Shown: one piece after another, positions 11,919 through 64,000 of the stretch
Layout: every line of letters starts with the position of its first letter
Position numbering within the stretch: the stretch's first letter is position 1
Assembly (NCBI GenBank): GCA_963675245.1
Contig: OY775910.1
Location: 832,001-896,000 of the forward strand
Length of the DNA: 64,000 bases
Source: Acholeplasmataceae bacterium
Lineage (GTDB): Bacteria; Bacillota_I; Bacilli_A; Acholeplasmatales; Acholeplasmataceae
Reading direction: 5' to 3'
Notes under the pieces: generated by a model
Told to the model about the DNA's origin: nothing
Databases searched by the model: none
Seen by the model: only the letters and a program-made list of their open reading frames with translations
Position numbers and translations under genes: made by a program

Positions 11919-13502
11919 ATGTATGAATTTAAATTTGCGGATATCGGTGAAGGTATCCATGAAGGTAATATCTTAGAATGGAAATTCAAAGAAGGCGACG
12001 CTGTCAATGAAGGCGATACATTAGTGATCGTTGAAACAGATAAGGTCAATGCAGAAATTCCATCACCAGTCAACGGTAAGGTCCACCAAATCAATTTTAA
12101 GGTTGGAGAAACGGTTCATGTTGGTGAAGTGCTTGTCGTATTAGATGACGGTACTGCTGAACCAGCACCAAAGAAAGAACCACAAAAAGAAGTATCTAAA
12201 AAAGAAGAACCTAAAAAAGAATCTAAAGCACCAGAAGTCACGGGTGGATTTGAGTTTAAGTTTGCTGACATTGGTGAAGGGATTCATGAGGGTAATATTT
12301 TAGAGTGGAAATATAAGGAAGGTGACGATGTTAAAGAAGGCGAAACATTAGTCATCGTTGAAACAGATAAAGTCAATGCTGAACTTCCATCACCAGTTGA
12401 GGGTAAGATTTCTAAAATTAATTTTAAAGCTGGTGAAACCGTTCATGTCGGTGAAGTATTAGTCGTTATCGGTGGTAATGCTAAACCACAAGAAGAGAAA
12501 GCACCATTAAGCGAAGGCGATGATGAAAAAGCAGCAGGCGTTATTGGTGAAATCGAAGTTTCCCATGATGTGATGGCTTCGAGCACAGAACATGAAGAAG
12601 AAAAACCTACAAAAAAATCAATGGGTAAGGTGTTAGCTACACCAGTCGCTAGAAAATTAGCAAAAGATTTAGGTGTTGACATTCAAACCGTTAAAGGTAC
12701 GGGTGAGAATGGTCGCGTCATGAAAGATGACATCAAAAAAGCAGCTAATAAACCTCAAGGGGCAACACATGTCAGTTCACCTAAAGTGAGTGTATCAACA
12801 CAAGGTGATGTTGAACTTGTGAAGATCACAAACCTTAGAAAAGCTATTGTTAAAGCTATGACGTTATCTAAACAAGTCATTCCTCATACGGTTTTACTTG
12901 ATGAAGTCAACGTCGATAAATTAGTTGATTTAAGAAAACAAGTGAAAGCACAAGCGGCTGCACAAGACATCAAGTTAACATATATGGCATTCATTATGAA
13001 GGCTGTTGTTTTAGCTCTTCAAAAATTCCCTTGGTTTAACGCAAGCTTTGACCAAGAAAACGAACAAATGGTATTAAAGAAATTCTATAACATTGGTATG
13101 GCGGTTGATACACCTGATGGTTTAATCGTTCCTAATATTAAAGATGCCAATCAAAAGAGCATCTTAGAATTAGCGAAAGACATTCAAACTGTTGGTGATT
13201 TAACTAAATCAAGAAAGATTCAACTCTCTGCGTTACAGAATTCAACCTTTAGTATAACGAACTTTGGTGCTGCAGGTATCGCTGCAGGTACTCCAATCAT
13301 TAATCATCCAGAAGTTGGTATTCTAGGTGTTGGTAAGATTGAGCAAAAAGCTGTTGTTATTGATGGCGAAATTAAAGCTGCTTACACCCTACCATTATCA
13401 TTAGCAGTCGATCACCGTGTGATTGATGGCGCTGATGCTGGAAGATTCTTAAACTATCTCAAGACGTTGCTTAGTGATCCGCTCTTGTTATTGTTAAATT
13501 GA
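11919..13502 (+). CDS. pdhC: Dihydrolipoamide acetyltransferase E2 with two lipoyl domains
   Basis: Two ETDKV lipoyl domains; E3-binding ATPVARKLA; catalytic DHRVIDG. Confidence 0.95.
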   Translation: MYEFKFADIGEGIHEGNILEWKFKEGDAVNEGDTLVIVETDKVNAEIPSPVNGKVHQINFKVGETVHVGEVLVVLDDGTAEPAPKKEPQKEVSKKEEPKKESKAPEVTGGFEFKFADIGEGIHEGNILEWKYKEGDDVKEGETLVIVETDKVNAELPSPVEGKISKINFKAGETVHVGEVLVVIGGNAKPQEEKAPLSEGDDEKAAGVIGEIEVSHDVMASSTEHEEEKPTKKSMGKVLATPVARKLAKDLGVDIQTVKGTGENGRVMKDDIKKAANKPQGATHVSSPKVSVSTQGDVELVKITNLRKAIVKAMTLSKQVIPHTVLLDEVNVDKLVDLRKQVKAQAAAQDIKLTYMAFIMKAVVLALQKFPWFNASFDQENEQMVLKKFYNIGMAVDTPDGLIVPNIKDANQKSILELAKDIQTVGDLTKSRKIQLSALQNSTFSITNFGAAGIAAGTPIINHPEVGILGVGKIEQKAVVIDGEIKAAYTLPLSLAVDHRVIDGADAGRFLNYLKTLLSDPLLLLLN

Positions 13503-13633
13503 GGTGACTAACTATTAAAAGTCAAGTACTTTTAGTAGATAAACTGTAAAAACCTCCAATAGCCATAATTTTTAGAGGTTAGCCATATAACTGGATGATT
13601 TTATGACTTAACCGCCACAGTTTAAGTAATCAA

Positions 13634-14794
13634 TTATTGTAGTTTAGAGGAATCAAAATCTTCCTGATGTGTTTCGAGATGATGAATGACTCTAATGAGT
13701 TTTTTTGAAAGATGAACCAGTGCGACACGATGATGTTTACCCTCTTGTTTCTTCTTGGTGTAGTAGTCGTAGAAGACGGGGTTATAGATCATAACCATCA
13801 TTGAGATATTGATGAGTGTTGCTCTTAGGTACTTGCTGCCACGTTTAACCAGTTTACCTGTTGAAGACATGGTGCCAGACTGTCTGATGGTTGAATCCAG
13901 ACCTGCATAGGATAACATTTCAGCGGGATTGGAGAAAAGTGAAATATCACCATATTCTGAAACGATGACAGCTGCTGAAATGATTCCGATACCTTTAATG
14001 GTTTGAATCTTAGTTGGATATCGATGCATTAAAGAAATGATCTGTTTCTCAGTTTCTTCGATATCTTGATTGAGTTTCTCAACATAAGAAATTGAAGTCT
14101 TAAGTTTGAATAGTTGATGATCTTGTGTCACACCAATGGTTGATTTTGCGAGTTCCTTCAGTTTAACAAACTTCGGATAATTGAATTTACCCATCGATCG
14201 TTTACGAAGCTTATCGAAGTGGTCATCAGTCATCCTTGCTATTTTATCCGGTGATGAAAAGCGCTTCAAGATGTATAAAGATGTATCACTATAGCCTTGT
14301 TCTTGCATAAAAGGTTTGAATTCAGGAAAGATGACATCTAAGACCTTGGTCATCATATTGTAGTGTTTCGTCCGAATTGAGATGAGTTTAAAACGTAACC
14401 TGGTCAGTGATTTTAAAGCACTTATATGATAAGATTGATGATGATAGGCTTTGTAGTCTACAGATCTCATATAAGTTGAAATCATTTGTGCATCTTTCTT
14501 ATCCGTCTTTGTTTTTCTCAGTGAATGGGCTTCTCCAAACTTCTTCACGAGAAAAGGATTAATCTCCATGAATGAATATCCATGGAGGATAAGAAATGAC
14601 TTAAGGTTTTCTCCATAATGACCTGTGGCCTCTAAGCCTATTATCATTTCTTGCTTGACTAAAGAGTTAAAGTATCCTAATAGTTCTTTAAACCCAGACT
14701 GACTGTTCTCAAATGAGAACTGATGGCTAACTGTTTCGGTGGCGATGAAACAGTCATGCTTGTACTTTGAAATATCGATGCCGATATAGATCAT
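13634..14794 (-). CDS. IS110-family DEDD recombinase/transposase
   Basis: GIDISK, GLEATG, KTDKKDA RuvC-like residues; C-terminal YAGLD..RQSG and KRGSKYLR. Confidence 0.95.
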   Translation of the reverse strand: MIYIGIDISKYKHDCFIATETVSHQFSFENSQSGFKELLGYFNSLVKQEMIIGLEATGHYGENLKSFLILHGYSFMEINPFLVKKFGEAHSLRKTKTDKKDAQMISTYMRSVDYKAYHHQSYHISALKSLTRLRFKLISIRTKHYNMMTKVLDVIFPEFKPFMQEQGYSDTSLYILKRFSSPDKIARMTDDHFDKLRKRSMGKFNYPKFVKLKELAKSTIGVTQDHQLFKLKTSISYVEKLNQDIEETEKQIISLMHRYPTKIQTIKGIGIISAAVIVSEYGDISLFSNPAEMLSYAGLDSTIRQSGTMSSTGKLVKRGSKYLRATLINISMMVMIYNPVFYDYYTKKKQEGKHHRVALVHLSKKLIRVIHHLETHQEDFDSSKLQ

Positions 14795-14834
14795 AAGTAC
14801 ACCTCCAAGAATTAAATTTGTACGTGTGGTAAGT

Positions 14835-15050
14835 CCAGCAGCGTCTTTATCTCATAATCATGTAAAAAGCGTCTTCCGCTAACTAACTATTGCTGATTAA
14901 AATAAAGACCGTGGTAAGCGTCACCTCAAAATAGTCTAGGTTATAAAAATATGACACAGATCCACAGTACATTATTAGTATATTAAATTAGAACGAAAGG
15001 AGTAAAGATTTAAAGACTTAAGTAACTAACTTAATACACTTTAAATCTTA
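14835..15050 (-). ncRNA. Predicted IS110 bridge RNA
   Basis: 5' hairpin (15006-15048), then four segments matching target-left, target-right, donor-left and donor-right in canonical order and orientation; boundaries approximate. Confidence 0.8.
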
Positions 15051-15059
15051 CATGATTAT

Positions 15060-16430
15060 ATGGCAACTTATGATGTATTAATATTAGGTGGCGGTCCAGG
15101 TGGTTATGTCGCCGCGATTAAAGCTGCTCAAAATGGATTAAAAACAGCACTGATTGAAAAAGAAGTAGTTGGAGGTATATGTTTAAATCACGGATGTATC
15201 CCAACAAAAGCATTATTGAAAAGTGCTAAAGTATATAAACAATTTAAACACGCGTCTGATTATGGTATCACGCTAAAAGGTGAGGTTGATTATGATTGGA
15301 CGAGTATGCTTAAAAGAAAAGATAAAGTCGTTAAGCAACTAACAGGCGGTGTTGCGGGATTACTTAAGAAGAATGGTGTTGATGTTTTTAACGGTTTTGG
15401 TGAAGTAGTATCTTCAACGAAAGTTAAGGTTAATGATCAAACACTTGAAACAAAAAATCTCATATTAGCAACAGGTGCCTCACCTGTCATTCCACCCATC
15501 CCTGGATTAAAAGAAGCATATGTAAAAGGGGTTGTTGTAACATCAAGAGAATTACTCCAAATTAAAGAAGCACCAACATCACTTGTCATTATTGGCGGTG
15601 GTGTCATTGGCGTAGAATTCGCAACCATCTTTAATGCACTTGGTTCTAAAATTACAATTATTGAAATGCAACCTGGCATTCTTCCACCAATGGATGATGC
15701 GATACGCACGCAATATACAAAACTTCTTAAAAAAGAAGGCATTGAGATTTTAACAAGTGCTGAAGTGAAAAAGGTTGATGATGGTACAGTTTATTATGAA
15801 CTCGATGGTAAACAACATCAAATCACAGGTGATACGGTCTTAGTCGCGGTTGGTATGCGTGCTAATTCTAAAGGTCTTGAGACGTTAAATCTTAAGATGA
15901 ACCGTGCAGCTGTAGACACAAACGATAAGCTTGAAACAAGTGTACCTCATGTGTACGCAATAGGTGATTTGAATGGGAAGTATATGCTCGCACATGTGGC
16001 ATCTCATGAAGGTGTGATCGCGATTGAAAATATTCTTGGACACGATAAGTCTATGAATTATGATCGCGTGCCTAACGCTGTTTATGGCTCACCAGAAATC
16101 GCGATGATTGGTAAAACCGAACGTGAACTAAAAGAACAAAATATTCCTTATAAAGCATCAACGTTCCCACTTATTGGTAATGGTAAATCTTTAGCAGACG
16201 GACAAAGCGAAGGGTTTATTAAATTATTAGTCAGTGAAAAGTATAAAGAAATATTAGGTGCACACATCTTGGCGTATAACGCATCTGATTTGATTGCTGA
16301 ATTAGGTGTTACGATGGAACTTGAAGGTACTGCTTATGAAATAGCGAATACCATTCACCCACACCCAACGCTATCAGAAATTGTGATGGAAGCGGCAGAA
16401 GGCGCAATCGGTAAACCTATTCATATTTAA
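15060..16430 (+). CDS. lpdA: Dihydrolipoamide dehydrogenase E3
   Basis: GGGPGGY, GGICLNHGCIPTK, GGGVIG, HPHPTLSE. Confidence 0.96.
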   Translation: MATYDVLILGGGPGGYVAAIKAAQNGLKTALIEKEVVGGICLNHGCIPTKALLKSAKVYKQFKHASDYGITLKGEVDYDWTSMLKRKDKVVKQLTGGVAGLLKKNGVDVFNGFGEVVSSTKVKVNDQTLETKNLILATGASPVIPPIPGLKEAYVKGVVVTSRELLQIKEAPTSLVIIGGGVIGVEFATIFNALGSKITIIEMQPGILPPMDDAIRTQYTKLLKKEGIEILTSAEVKKVDDGTVYYELDGKQHQITGDTVLVAVGMRANSKGLETLNLKMNRAAVDTNDKLETSVPHVYAIGDLNGKYMLAHVASHEGVIAIENILGHDKSMNYDRVPNAVYGSPEIAMIGKTERELKEQNIPYKASTFPLIGNGKSLADGQSEGFIKLLVSEKYKEILGAHILAYNASDLIAELGVTMELEGTAYEIANTIHPHPTLSEIVMEAAEGAIGKPIHI

Positions 16431-62262: not shown

Positions 62263-64000
62263 TTAGACACCTTTTTTGGCTTTCCTTAATTGTTCAGCCA
62301 CAGAATTGTTTTGTTTACTGACATGTCCTTTTAAAGGTAGAATCTTATCATTGATAGCGTCGATAATCCAATCTGCTTGAGGGAAGAAGGTAGCATCAAA
62401 TTCATACGGTGGTGTTATCCAATTCTTTGCACCTACAACAACTGGTGGACCATCTAAATAATCAAATGCCATTTCTGAAATGTTTCTTGCAAAATCATTT
62501 AAGATGGAACCTCTTGCACACGCATCACTTGCTAAAACAATTCGCCCTGTTTTTTTAACAGATTCAATGACTTGTTCATAATTAAAAGGAACGATACTTC
62601 TAGCATCAATCACTTCAGCAGAAACACCATATGTTTCTTCTAATTGTTTAGCCGCTTCCATCGCGTGATATAAGGTTGCACCAATGGTTAAGATTGTGAC
62701 ATCGGAACCTACACGTTTAATGTTTGGTTCACCAAGTGCAATTTCATAATATTCTTCTGGCACACCTGAATCAACAAACTCCTCGCCTTTGTCATATATT
62801 CTTTGTGACTCAAAGAAGACCACTGGATCAGTACCATTGAGTGCGGCATTCATCATACCTTTTGCATCATATGGAGTCACAGGAAATGCTACTTTTAATC
62901 CAGGTACATGAGCCGGTAGCGCTACCCAGTCTTGAGAATGTTGGGCACCATATTTAGAACCAATAGATACTCTTAAAATGACAGGCATCTTTAAGACACC
63001 ACTACTCATCGCTTGCCATTTAGCAAGTTGGTTAAATATTTCATCACCTGCACGTCCCATAAAGTCGGCATACATCAGTTCAATGATGACACGACCACCA
63101 CTTAATCCATAACCAACAGCAGTTGAGACAATCGCTGCTTCAGATATTGGACTATTGAATAATCTATGATAAGGAAGTGCTTCAGTTAAACCTCTGTAAA
63201 CAGCGAATGCGCCACCCCAGTCTCTCACATCTTCACCATAGGAAATCAGTGTTGGATCTTTATAGAAACGGTCGATAATCGCTTCAAAAAGACCATCTCT
63301 GATATTGTATTGTTTTATTTTAGGAATCAATTTACCTTGTTCATCATACGCATAACGAACACGTGATTTAAGTAATTTAACACGGGGGTTTTCTTCATAT
63401 GGTAATAAGAAATCACCTTTTCTAGTAGTGTCAAAAGATTCAACAGCACCATTGCTAAACATAAGTGATTCTACGTAATGAGGATTTTGATCTAAATCAA
63501 GATATGGTGATTTTTCAATATCAGAAGCGACTAAGAATAAGCGATACATTCTATCTTTAACGGCATTTAGGATATCTTCAAATTCACTATCTTTTGCAAT
63601 TTTAGCATCTACAAGTTCTTTTCTAAATGTAATCAGTGGATCGATTGCTTCCCACGCATCAATTTCTTCCTTTGTACGATAACTCATCGCGTCTGATGGT
63701 GAATGTCCACCAAATCGATAAGTGACGACATCTAAGAAAACAGGTCCTTTACCTTCTTTGATAATTTCCATTTTACGTTTATAAGCATCAATCACTGCTA
63801 ACACATTAAACCCATTGATGCGTTCTGTGTGTAATTGGGTTGGACTAATTCCTGCACCAAGTCGAGCAACGAAATCATTAGCCATCGTTTCGCCTCTGGT
63901 TTGACCACCCATACCATATCCGTTATTAAATATATTAAAGATGATTGGAAGACCACTTTGTTCATCCCATAGTTGTGTGAATTGATCCATTGCTGCAAAG
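62263..64000 (-). CDS. Fused alpha/beta TPP-dependent 2-oxoacid-dehydrogenase-type E1 (5' end outside window)
   Basis: Alpha-type NNGYGM and YRFGGHSPSD joined in frame to beta-type GEDVRDWGGAF, SPISE, GAQHSQ; frame stays open to the window edge. Confidence 0.88.
   Translation of the reverse strand, partial: FAAMDQFTQLWDEQSGLPIIFNIFNNGYGMGGQTRGETMANDFVARLGAGISPTQLHTERINGFNVLAVIDAYKRKMEIIKEGKGPVFLDVVTYRFGGHSPSDAMSYRTKEEIDAWEAIDPLITFRKELVDAKIAKDSEFEDILNAVKDRMYRLFLVASDIEKSPYLDLDQNPHYVESLMFSNGAVESFDTTRKGDFLLPYEENPRVKLLKSRVRYAYDEQGKLIPKIKQYNIRDGLFEAIIDRFYKDPTLISYGEDVRDWGGAFAVYRGLTEALPYHRLFNSPISEAAIVSTAVGYGLSGGRVIIELMYADFMGRAGDEIFNQLAKWQAMSSGVLKMPVILRVSIGSKYGAQHSQDWVALPAHVPGLKVAFPVTPYDAKGMMNAALNGTDPVVFFESQRIYDKGEEFVDSGVPEEYYEIALGEPNIKRVGSDVTILTIGATLYHAMEAAKQLEETYGVSAEVIDARSIVPFNYEQVIESVKKTGRIVLASDACARGSILNDFARNISEMAFDYLDGPPVVVGAKNWITPPYEFDATFFPQADWIIDAINDKILPLKGHVSKQNNSVAEQLRKAKKGV

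Follow-up and report, generated by a model that had tools for sequence, protein, structure and literature searches.

What places an insertion sequence (IS) exactly between a Shine-Dalgarno (SD) box and the start codon that it serves, and what becomes of the gene behind it? The question is raised by a 64,000-nucleotide stretch of the genome of an Acholeplasmataceae bacterium (GenBank assembly GCA_963675245.1, contig OY775910.1, positions 832,001 to 896,000; the whole stretch is called the window here, and positions are counted from its first letter). In this window the genes pdhA, pdhB, pdhC and lpdA all lie on the plus strand, as read from the open reading frames (ORFs) and their Pfam domains, and an IS110-group element separates the box GAGGTG from the ATG of lpdA. 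We consider it likely that this element is guided by a bridge RNA whose target-binding loop is written for the translation-initiation region. The site and the element consist of the following features.

11919–13502, plus strand: pdhC, the E2 dihydrolipoyl acyltransferase (ORF; Pfam 2-oxoacid_dh, Biotin_lipoyl and E3_binding)
13501–13506, plus strand: host SD box GAGGTG, formerly the SD of lpdA and the right-target half-site of the IS (sequence; the same box stands in the uninterrupted junction of relatives)
13507–13508, no strand: donor-type core dinucleotide, AC on the plus strand and GT in element orientation (identical at 23 of 23 SD-side junctions)
13509–15054, minus strand: body of the IS110-group insertion sequence, 1,546 bp (four genome copies; ends from the glnS empty site)
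13520–13525, minus strand: -35-like TTGACT in the right end, recognised from sequence only
13634–14794, minus strand: IS110-family RNA-guided transposase, 386 aa (PF01548, PF02371; NCBIfam NF033542; sequence matches to IS621 and ISCro4)
15045–15050, minus strand: -10-like TAAGAT in the left end, recognised likewise
15055–15056, no strand: target-derived core dinucleotide AT (varies among copies)
15060–16430, plus strand: lpdA, the E3 dihydrolipoyl dehydrogenase, 456 aa, an intact ORF whose adjacent SD is gone (ORF and Pfam)

The initial annotation of this DNA had proposed that an IS110 element separates lpdA from its SD, and this can be read directly as GAGGTG, 1,546 bp of element and ATG, the box having been moved 1,548 bp away. 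The box overlaps the stop codon of pdhC (TGA, 13500–13502). Equally accurate was the statement that no SD now precedes the lpdA ATG (15060): the 20 nt before it are AT-rich and hold none of GGAG, GAGG, AGGA, GGTG or AAGG, and the closest purine box upstream on the plus strand is GAAAGGAG at 14995–15002. The protein encoded by lpdA is 89% identical to its orthologue in the closest relative (genome G006).

The assignment to the IS110 group follows from several properties of the element. Its transposase carries the DEDD (RuvC-like) and Tnp domains by which the group is recognised (PF01548, 3.2e-36; PF02371, 4.7e-22), scores 230 bits against the NCBIfam model "IS110 family RNA-guided transposase" (cut-off, 140) and matches in sequence the transposases of the solved IS621 and ISCro4 structures. 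Between the left terminus (15054) and the transposase ATG (14794) there are 260 nt, compared with 125 nt on the 3' side of the gene. The genome, a single contig of 1.63 Mb, carries four copies that differ by 0 to 2 nt over the 1,546 bp, solely at 13627 (T/G) and 14037 (A/G); the repeat unitig assembled in the sequencing runs has G at 13627. Read in the sense of the host gene, all four copies show GAGGTGAC before the element, the element end CATG, exactly 5 nt and then ATG. The genes behind them are lpdA, a gene for a 109-aa protein (which falls into no Pfam family and lacks a homologue in four relatives), a gene for a GDSL esterase, and a gene for a class I Glu/Gln tRNA synthetase with the sequence of a GlnRS (glnS).

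The glnS copy gave the boundaries of the element. In G006 we found no homologue of this transposase, and its glnS start region reads GAGGTG-TT-ATT-ATG, that is, the left flank, the dinucleotide and the spacer that are now divided by the IS in the studied genome, with nothing duplicated. Insertion without target duplication at a short core is another property of the IS110 group. This empty site places the element body at 13509–15054, with the dinucleotide on the SD side coming from the donor and that on the ATG side coming from the target. Since the empty glnS site of G006 reads exactly as predicted by this model, the ancestral start site of lpdA most likely read TTGAGGTG-AT-TAT-ATGGCA. The initial annotation had reconstructed an empty site ending in TA-TATGGCA; its length was right, but to judge from the glnS copy the crossover lies 2 nt earlier and one base is different.

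The non-coding left end contains what appears to be the bridge RNA, in which we located the guides by the definitions given in Durrant 2024 (PMC11208160) and Hiraizumi 2024 (PMC11208158).

14845–15038, minus strand: bridge RNA region with a 5' stem-loop (14979–15038), a target-binding loop hairpin (14908–14968) and a donor-binding loop hairpin (14845–14907) (12-element alignment, hand model)
14945–14958, minus strand: left target guide region with UCAUAU inside it and an invariant CAU at 14951–14953, the complement of AUG (alignment)
14920–14929, minus strand: right target guide UUGAGGUGAC in the 3' strand of the target-binding hairpin, with the sequence of the SD (guide/flank comparison)
14882–14891, minus strand: left donor guide AAUAGUUAGU in the 5' strand of the donor-binding hairpin, equal to the right-end terminus plus core (sequence)
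14853–14865, minus strand: right donor guide UUACAUGAU at 14857–14865, followed by a handshake-like UAUG at 14853–14856 (complementary to the left-end terminus CATGTAA)

The guides complement both the target and the joined ends of the element, as is characteristic of the group. For the left donor guide the match covers 10 nt of the right end plus core, and for the right donor guide 9 nt of the left end, one G-U pair included; the latter guide and its UAUG region are invariant among the 12 elements aligned. The right donor guide is written for an AT core and the right target guide for GT. In the left target guide the CAU is invariant while the neighbouring positions vary. It had been suggested that the guides themselves encode the SD and the ATG, and they do, as TTGAGGTGAC at 14920–14929 (minus strand), as the CAU of the left guide and as the UAUG that follows the right donor guide. 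The predicted fold of the left end is consistent with a bridge RNA, without amounting to proof. A scan of 13300–15300 against Rfam at E <= 1 returned a chance snoRNA match only and no bridge-RNA family. An RNAalifold consensus was set aside; it paired the target guide with neighbouring bases, and its long-range stem is broken in 2 of the 12 sequences.

Further evidence comes from other insertions of the same kind. Homologues of the transposase were found in 57 of 301 genomes of the same order, and 30 loci from this search were scanned for element ends. Both ends were present at 12 of these loci, the window copy and 11 from other genomes with transposase identities of 73–91%; the other 18, at which no ends could be recognised and which were left unscored, are contig-truncated close relatives (L026, L037 and L039), a split gene (L040) and families at 44–52% identity (L041–L054). 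Eight further copies from three genomes (G083, G008 and G014) were fetched and read, and four end-pattern matches were discarded for a wrong length or an absent flank (L064 twice, L066 and L068). The set comprises 23 insertion events in 13 genomes, namely, the four copies of this genome and 19 related copies in 12 others. Every one of them has an SD-like box on one side of the element and, within 7 nt on the other, an ATG or GTG, and the transposase is antisense to the host gene, so that a start site is entered in a fixed orientation throughout. The proposal of an element programmed for translation-initiation regions, with ORFs left intact, is thus supported well beyond lpdA: the survey of other copies that had been suggested as its check puts 4 of 4 copies in this genome and 19 of 19 in relatives at SD/start junctions, and the guides vary together with the flanks.

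This covariation is visible at the level of single bases. The 8-mer of the guide is identical to the 8-mer of the flank in 22 of the 23 events (the sole miss is one base off), across six guide variants (GAGGTGAC, GGGGTGAC, GAGTTGAC, AAGGTGAC, TAGGTGAC and GGAGTGAC); six of the eight positions are flank proper, since the last two bases come from the donor. In a permutation test over 10 guide positions and 12 distinct elements, guides matched their own flanks at 109 of 120 positions, compared with 94.6 +/- 2.5 for permuted flanks, and none of 20,000 permutations reached as high a value.

The box to which the guides are written belongs to the host. Among genomes of the same genus, the pdhC-lpdA junction is uninterrupted in all eight in which it could be read, and five of them have TGAGGTG, overlapping the pdhC stop a few bases upstream of the lpdA ATG; hence, the position of the insertion is not a matter of chance. 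The 3' tail of the 16S rRNA of this genome is complementary to GAGGTGAT and to GAGGTG, and a 4-mer SD stands at -18 to -4 in 71% of 1,221 ORFs (a crude set) versus 14% at a control position, which indicates that SDs are normally used by this organism.

The sequence GAGGTG-N5-ATG occurs 37 times in the genome, four of the occurrences being the transposase gene's own start site. All the remaining sites of this genome depart from the 16-nt consensus target at more than one position; the best of those still free, ttGAGGTG-AT-TGT-ATG (G000:C1:1267101, plus strand, before a 176-aa ORF), has two mismatches to the consensus. The pdhC-lpdA junction seems to be favored because the TGA stop of pdhC lengthens the match to the guide. 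A genome of another genus (G070:C25, locus L034) has an 84%-identical element in the same junction, an independent hit that the extended guide match from the TGA stop explains; there lpdA starts with GTG, 9 nt downstream of the terminal ATG of the element and in frame with it. The transposase gene itself has a start site (GGAGGTG-TA-CTT-ATG, 14792–14806, minus strand) with the same layout of SD, N5 and ATG and with five mismatches to the 16-nt consensus; this is a potential self-target that seems to be avoided through these mismatches.

The mechanism that we favor would run as follows. The right target guide would pair with the SD box (GAGGTG) and the dinucleotide, the left target guide would pair with the spacer and the ATG complement, and this pairing would direct entry between the SD and the start codon with the transposase gene reading against the host gene in every case. 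The donor-binding loop would recognise the element's own joined ends. Circularisation is predicted to bring TTGACT and TAAGAT to a distance of 17 nt, and a promoter may thus be rebuilt over the circle junction, judging from the letters alone. The lpdA copy, like the other three, would be a recent hit on one of the sites of this genome that match best. Separately, the reverse complement of the first codons of lpdA contains a -35-like TTGCCA 17 nt from TAAAGT in the left end (15038–15066, minus strand; 9 of 12 matches), a candidate hybrid promoter that might drive the bridge RNA at the integrated lpdA copy.

The core dinucleotides are inherited in a one-sided way. The dinucleotide on the SD side is of the donor type at all junctions, and the empty glnS site of G006 has TT at its position. 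The dinucleotide on the ATG side, derived from the target, reads AT, GT, GT and AA (element orientation) in the four copies of this genome and GT 3, AT 12, TT 4, AA 2, TC 1 and CT 1 over the 23 events (the window copy, L002–L004, L027–L036, L038 and L063–L070). The first core base is G in the donor and A or T in most targets, and it differs between the two in 20 of the 23 events. The reverse pattern is seen in none of these 20, whereas about half would be expected to show it under a 2-nt-staggered exchange of both strands followed by resolution through replication. The asymmetry fits either a transfer of the top strand only, as a preprint claims (10.1101/2025.10.25.684509), or a non-staggered crossover.

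As for lpdA, the displacement of its SD probably reduces translation of the gene, but the insertion does not necessarily abolish its expression. Transcription from the pdh promoter probably still reaches lpdA, since no terminator-like site was found, although the terminator scan is a weak one; the accompanying promoter scan gave 11 promoter-like sites against 6.7 +/- 2.3 expected. The glnS copy is informative here. It is the same type of insertion, and it comes between the SD and the start codon of the genome's sole GlnRS gene. A bacterium without the GatCAB route requires GlnRS. We did not find GatB in this genome, which is 99.96% complete, with a control search that recovered GatB in 12 of 14 known genomes. 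Therefore, glnS is probably essential and must still be expressed, so that insertions of this type cannot abolish expression. In addition, about 50 kb away the minus strand carries a second 2-oxoacid dehydrogenase cluster (approximately 63258–64000 of the window and beyond; G000:C1:895258-899610, L024), which codes for an E2 of 408 aa, an E3 of 456 aa that is 43% identical to the lpdA product, and a protein with an E1 domain. Its E3 gene is intact and has its own SD, and the cluster could buffer a loss of E3.

A number of observations weigh against the interpretation given so far. The match between the left target guide and the flank is partial, about 5–7 of 10 positions, with CAUAU versus CATAT in the lpdA copy, and the distance from CAT to the element ranges from 4 to 7 nt among relatives. 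The structure of the bridge RNA has almost no support from covariation: the two-loop model made by hand is paired in 99.8% of cells, but the 12 element sequences are so alike that compensatory changes affect just two pairs. Two of the 23 start codons open ORFs of just 15 and 21 aa and one ORF ends at a contig edge; the remaining ones open real-looking genes, with Pfam domains that include ABC ATPase, aldo-keto reductase, HPr, CDP-alcohol phosphatidyltransferase and a TMEM164-family membrane protein. We infer the effect on LpdA, and the essentiality of glnS is deduced from GatB not being found. Finally, neither an empty-site joint nor a circle joint was present in four of the 24 listed runs, chosen as those that hold the stretch well, in contig-level data (Logan contigs from two samples of one study) from which rare alleles are dropped. 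The insertion junction was present in both samples of that study, the one containing this DNA.

The least improbable of the alternatives involves the element's outward-facing left end.

14995–15054, plus strand: host-sense left end with GAAAGGAG (14995–15002), a hairpin (15005–15049) and a terminal ATG (15052–15054) (12-element alignment; function speculative)

The hairpin ends two bases before the terminal ATG of the element and would, as modelled, put the GGAG of GAAAGGAG at a workable distance from it. According to this alternative, translation of the host gene would be maintained by the outward GGAG, the hairpin and the terminal AUG, which stands 7–10 nt ahead of the host start, whether by an in-frame start, by coupling through an overlapping stop and start or by local loading of ribosomes. 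The GGAG is kept in 10 of the 12 elements while its neighbours vary, and for the hairpin 114 of 120 cells are paired, L038 shows two compensatory changes, and folding of the host-sense RNA predicts it as well. However, the hairpin is equally good in the opposite sense (the strand test was a tie), and the terminal CATG is already needed for pairing with the right donor guide. Of 15 events read, all four with a 6-nt spacer have the terminal ATG in frame with the host start and five of the nine with a 5-nt spacer have an ATGA or TAATG overlap with it, but such frame relations are fairly frequent by chance in an AT-rich genome, and at lpdA and glnS themselves the short ORF is neither in frame nor does it stop at the host start. 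That the probably essential glnS tolerates the insertion would be accounted for. On balance, we regard such a replacement of the start site as unlikely. The same doubt applies to its corollary, that the element swaps start sites and acts not as an on/off switch but as a portable rheostat of translation, with glnS and lpdA translated at a new level set by the element, and we would give this little credence.

Less probable still is the idea of the initial annotation that E3 is switched off by the insertion and on again by scarless excision, producing phase variation of pyruvate dehydrogenase. The SD has indeed been taken away from the lpdA ATG in an organism in which most genes use one, and a precise deletion would restore a functional start site. 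By analogy with IS492 of Pseudoalteromonas atlantica, an IS110-family element for which precise excision is described as acting as a phase switch, a switch of this kind would be possible in principle. IS492 interrupts a coding gene. Unlike IS492, the element described here leaves ORFs intact, and neither an excision product nor an empty allele was seen for it in the contig data. The joint search is a weak test, being based on contigs. The insertion junction was recovered from both samples. According to the abstracts of recent work, excision is less efficient than insertion (PMC13626964), or the element is copied out and the donor copy stays in place. Moreover, the junction dinucleotides are unequal (AT versus GT, element orientation), so that excision would face a core mismatch. 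The same type of insertion stands before a probably essential gene, and a second E3 gene exists. The proposal finds no support, and nothing indicates a dedicated or reversible switch at lpdA.

Finally, GAGGTGACTA is identical at all four genome copies, as would be expected if the IS entered AT-rich DNA before an ATG and carried GAGGTGAC with it, or if its position were due to chance, but this has practically no probability left, since IS-free relatives show the same box in the same place overlapping the pdhC stop, the glnS of G006 has GAGGTG directly before the dinucleotide and spacer now found beyond the IS, and flank variants track guide variants; the relatives' junctions and the glnS site refute an element-borne box.

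Entry at start sites under the guidance of a bridge RNA, the reading that we prefer, is not new as far as the targeting is concerned, since it is the behavior of IS900. IS901, IS902, IS116 and IS1110 behave like IS900. Like that element (IS110 family, Mycobacterium avium subsp. paratuberculosis), the one studied here inserts in a single orientation between the ribosome-binding site and the start codon. The targeting of start sites by IS900 is already in the title of Doran 1997, and its target motif as given in PMC8141618, CATGNNNNNNTCTCCTT, becomes an SD, a spacer and ATG when reverse-complemented; the target described here, read in the orientation of the element, is CAT-N3-NN-CACCTC. Unlike in IS900, the SD register is GAGGTGA rather than AAGGAGA, the host lineage is of low GC (33.9%), and the specificity can be read from the guides of the bridge RNA. 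In IS900-type elements, host signals drive a hed-like ORF that runs opposite to the transposase gene. This element has no counterpart: the plus strand of 13509–15054 lacks an ORF of at least 80 aa, and no ATG, GTG or TTG of the element follows the host SD at the spacing that a start would need. Among the papers searched, none named both "bridge RNA" and "IS900," and the main text of Durrant 2024 (PMC11208160), supplements aside, contains none of the terms "Shine," "RBS" and "start codon."

Two more distant IS110 families, in the relatives G001 and G042 (L071–L077, with 44–48% transposase identity), are likewise inserted between CAT and (T)CTCCT(T). This holds for seven of seven copies, and these flanks are the IS900 motif itself. 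A third distant family (G014) is outside this count, as its ends could not be delimited. In the G001 family, the crossover seemingly lies inside the SD, and terminus plus core rebuild AAGG 5 nt before the host ATG. Taken together, the IS900 motif and the families in G001 and G042 make start-site targeting a long-standing and common trait within part of the IS110 family.

In its machinery the element resembles IS621. It has the same transposase domains, its sequence matches the IS621 structure, and the putative non-coding RNA is encoded in the left end, ahead of the transposase gene. The guides pair by the rule given for IS621, under which left guides have the sequence of the top strand and right guides that of its complement (PMC11208160), and a handshake-like extension follows the right donor guide (PMC11208158). 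Unlike in IS621, the target is a translation start site rather than a REP element, the right target guide is long (8–10 nt), the first core base differs between donor and target in most events, and the donor dinucleotide always ends up on the SD side.

No new kind of system is revealed by this locus, and a switch on pyruvate dehydrogenase remains a guess. What it offers is a natural case, spread over multiple genomes, of bridge-RNA guides written for a universal functional target, the ribosome-binding site and start codon, and with it an explanation, at the level of the guides, of the habit described for IS900 in the 1990s. The covariation of guide and flank over six SD variants is clean natural evidence for RNA-guided choice of targets, and the one-sided inheritance of the core bears on the debate between dual-strand and top-strand-only insertion. 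For the organism itself, four host genes, one of them probably essential, have lost their SD, which makes the strain a ready test of the importance of the SD in a low-GC bacterium.

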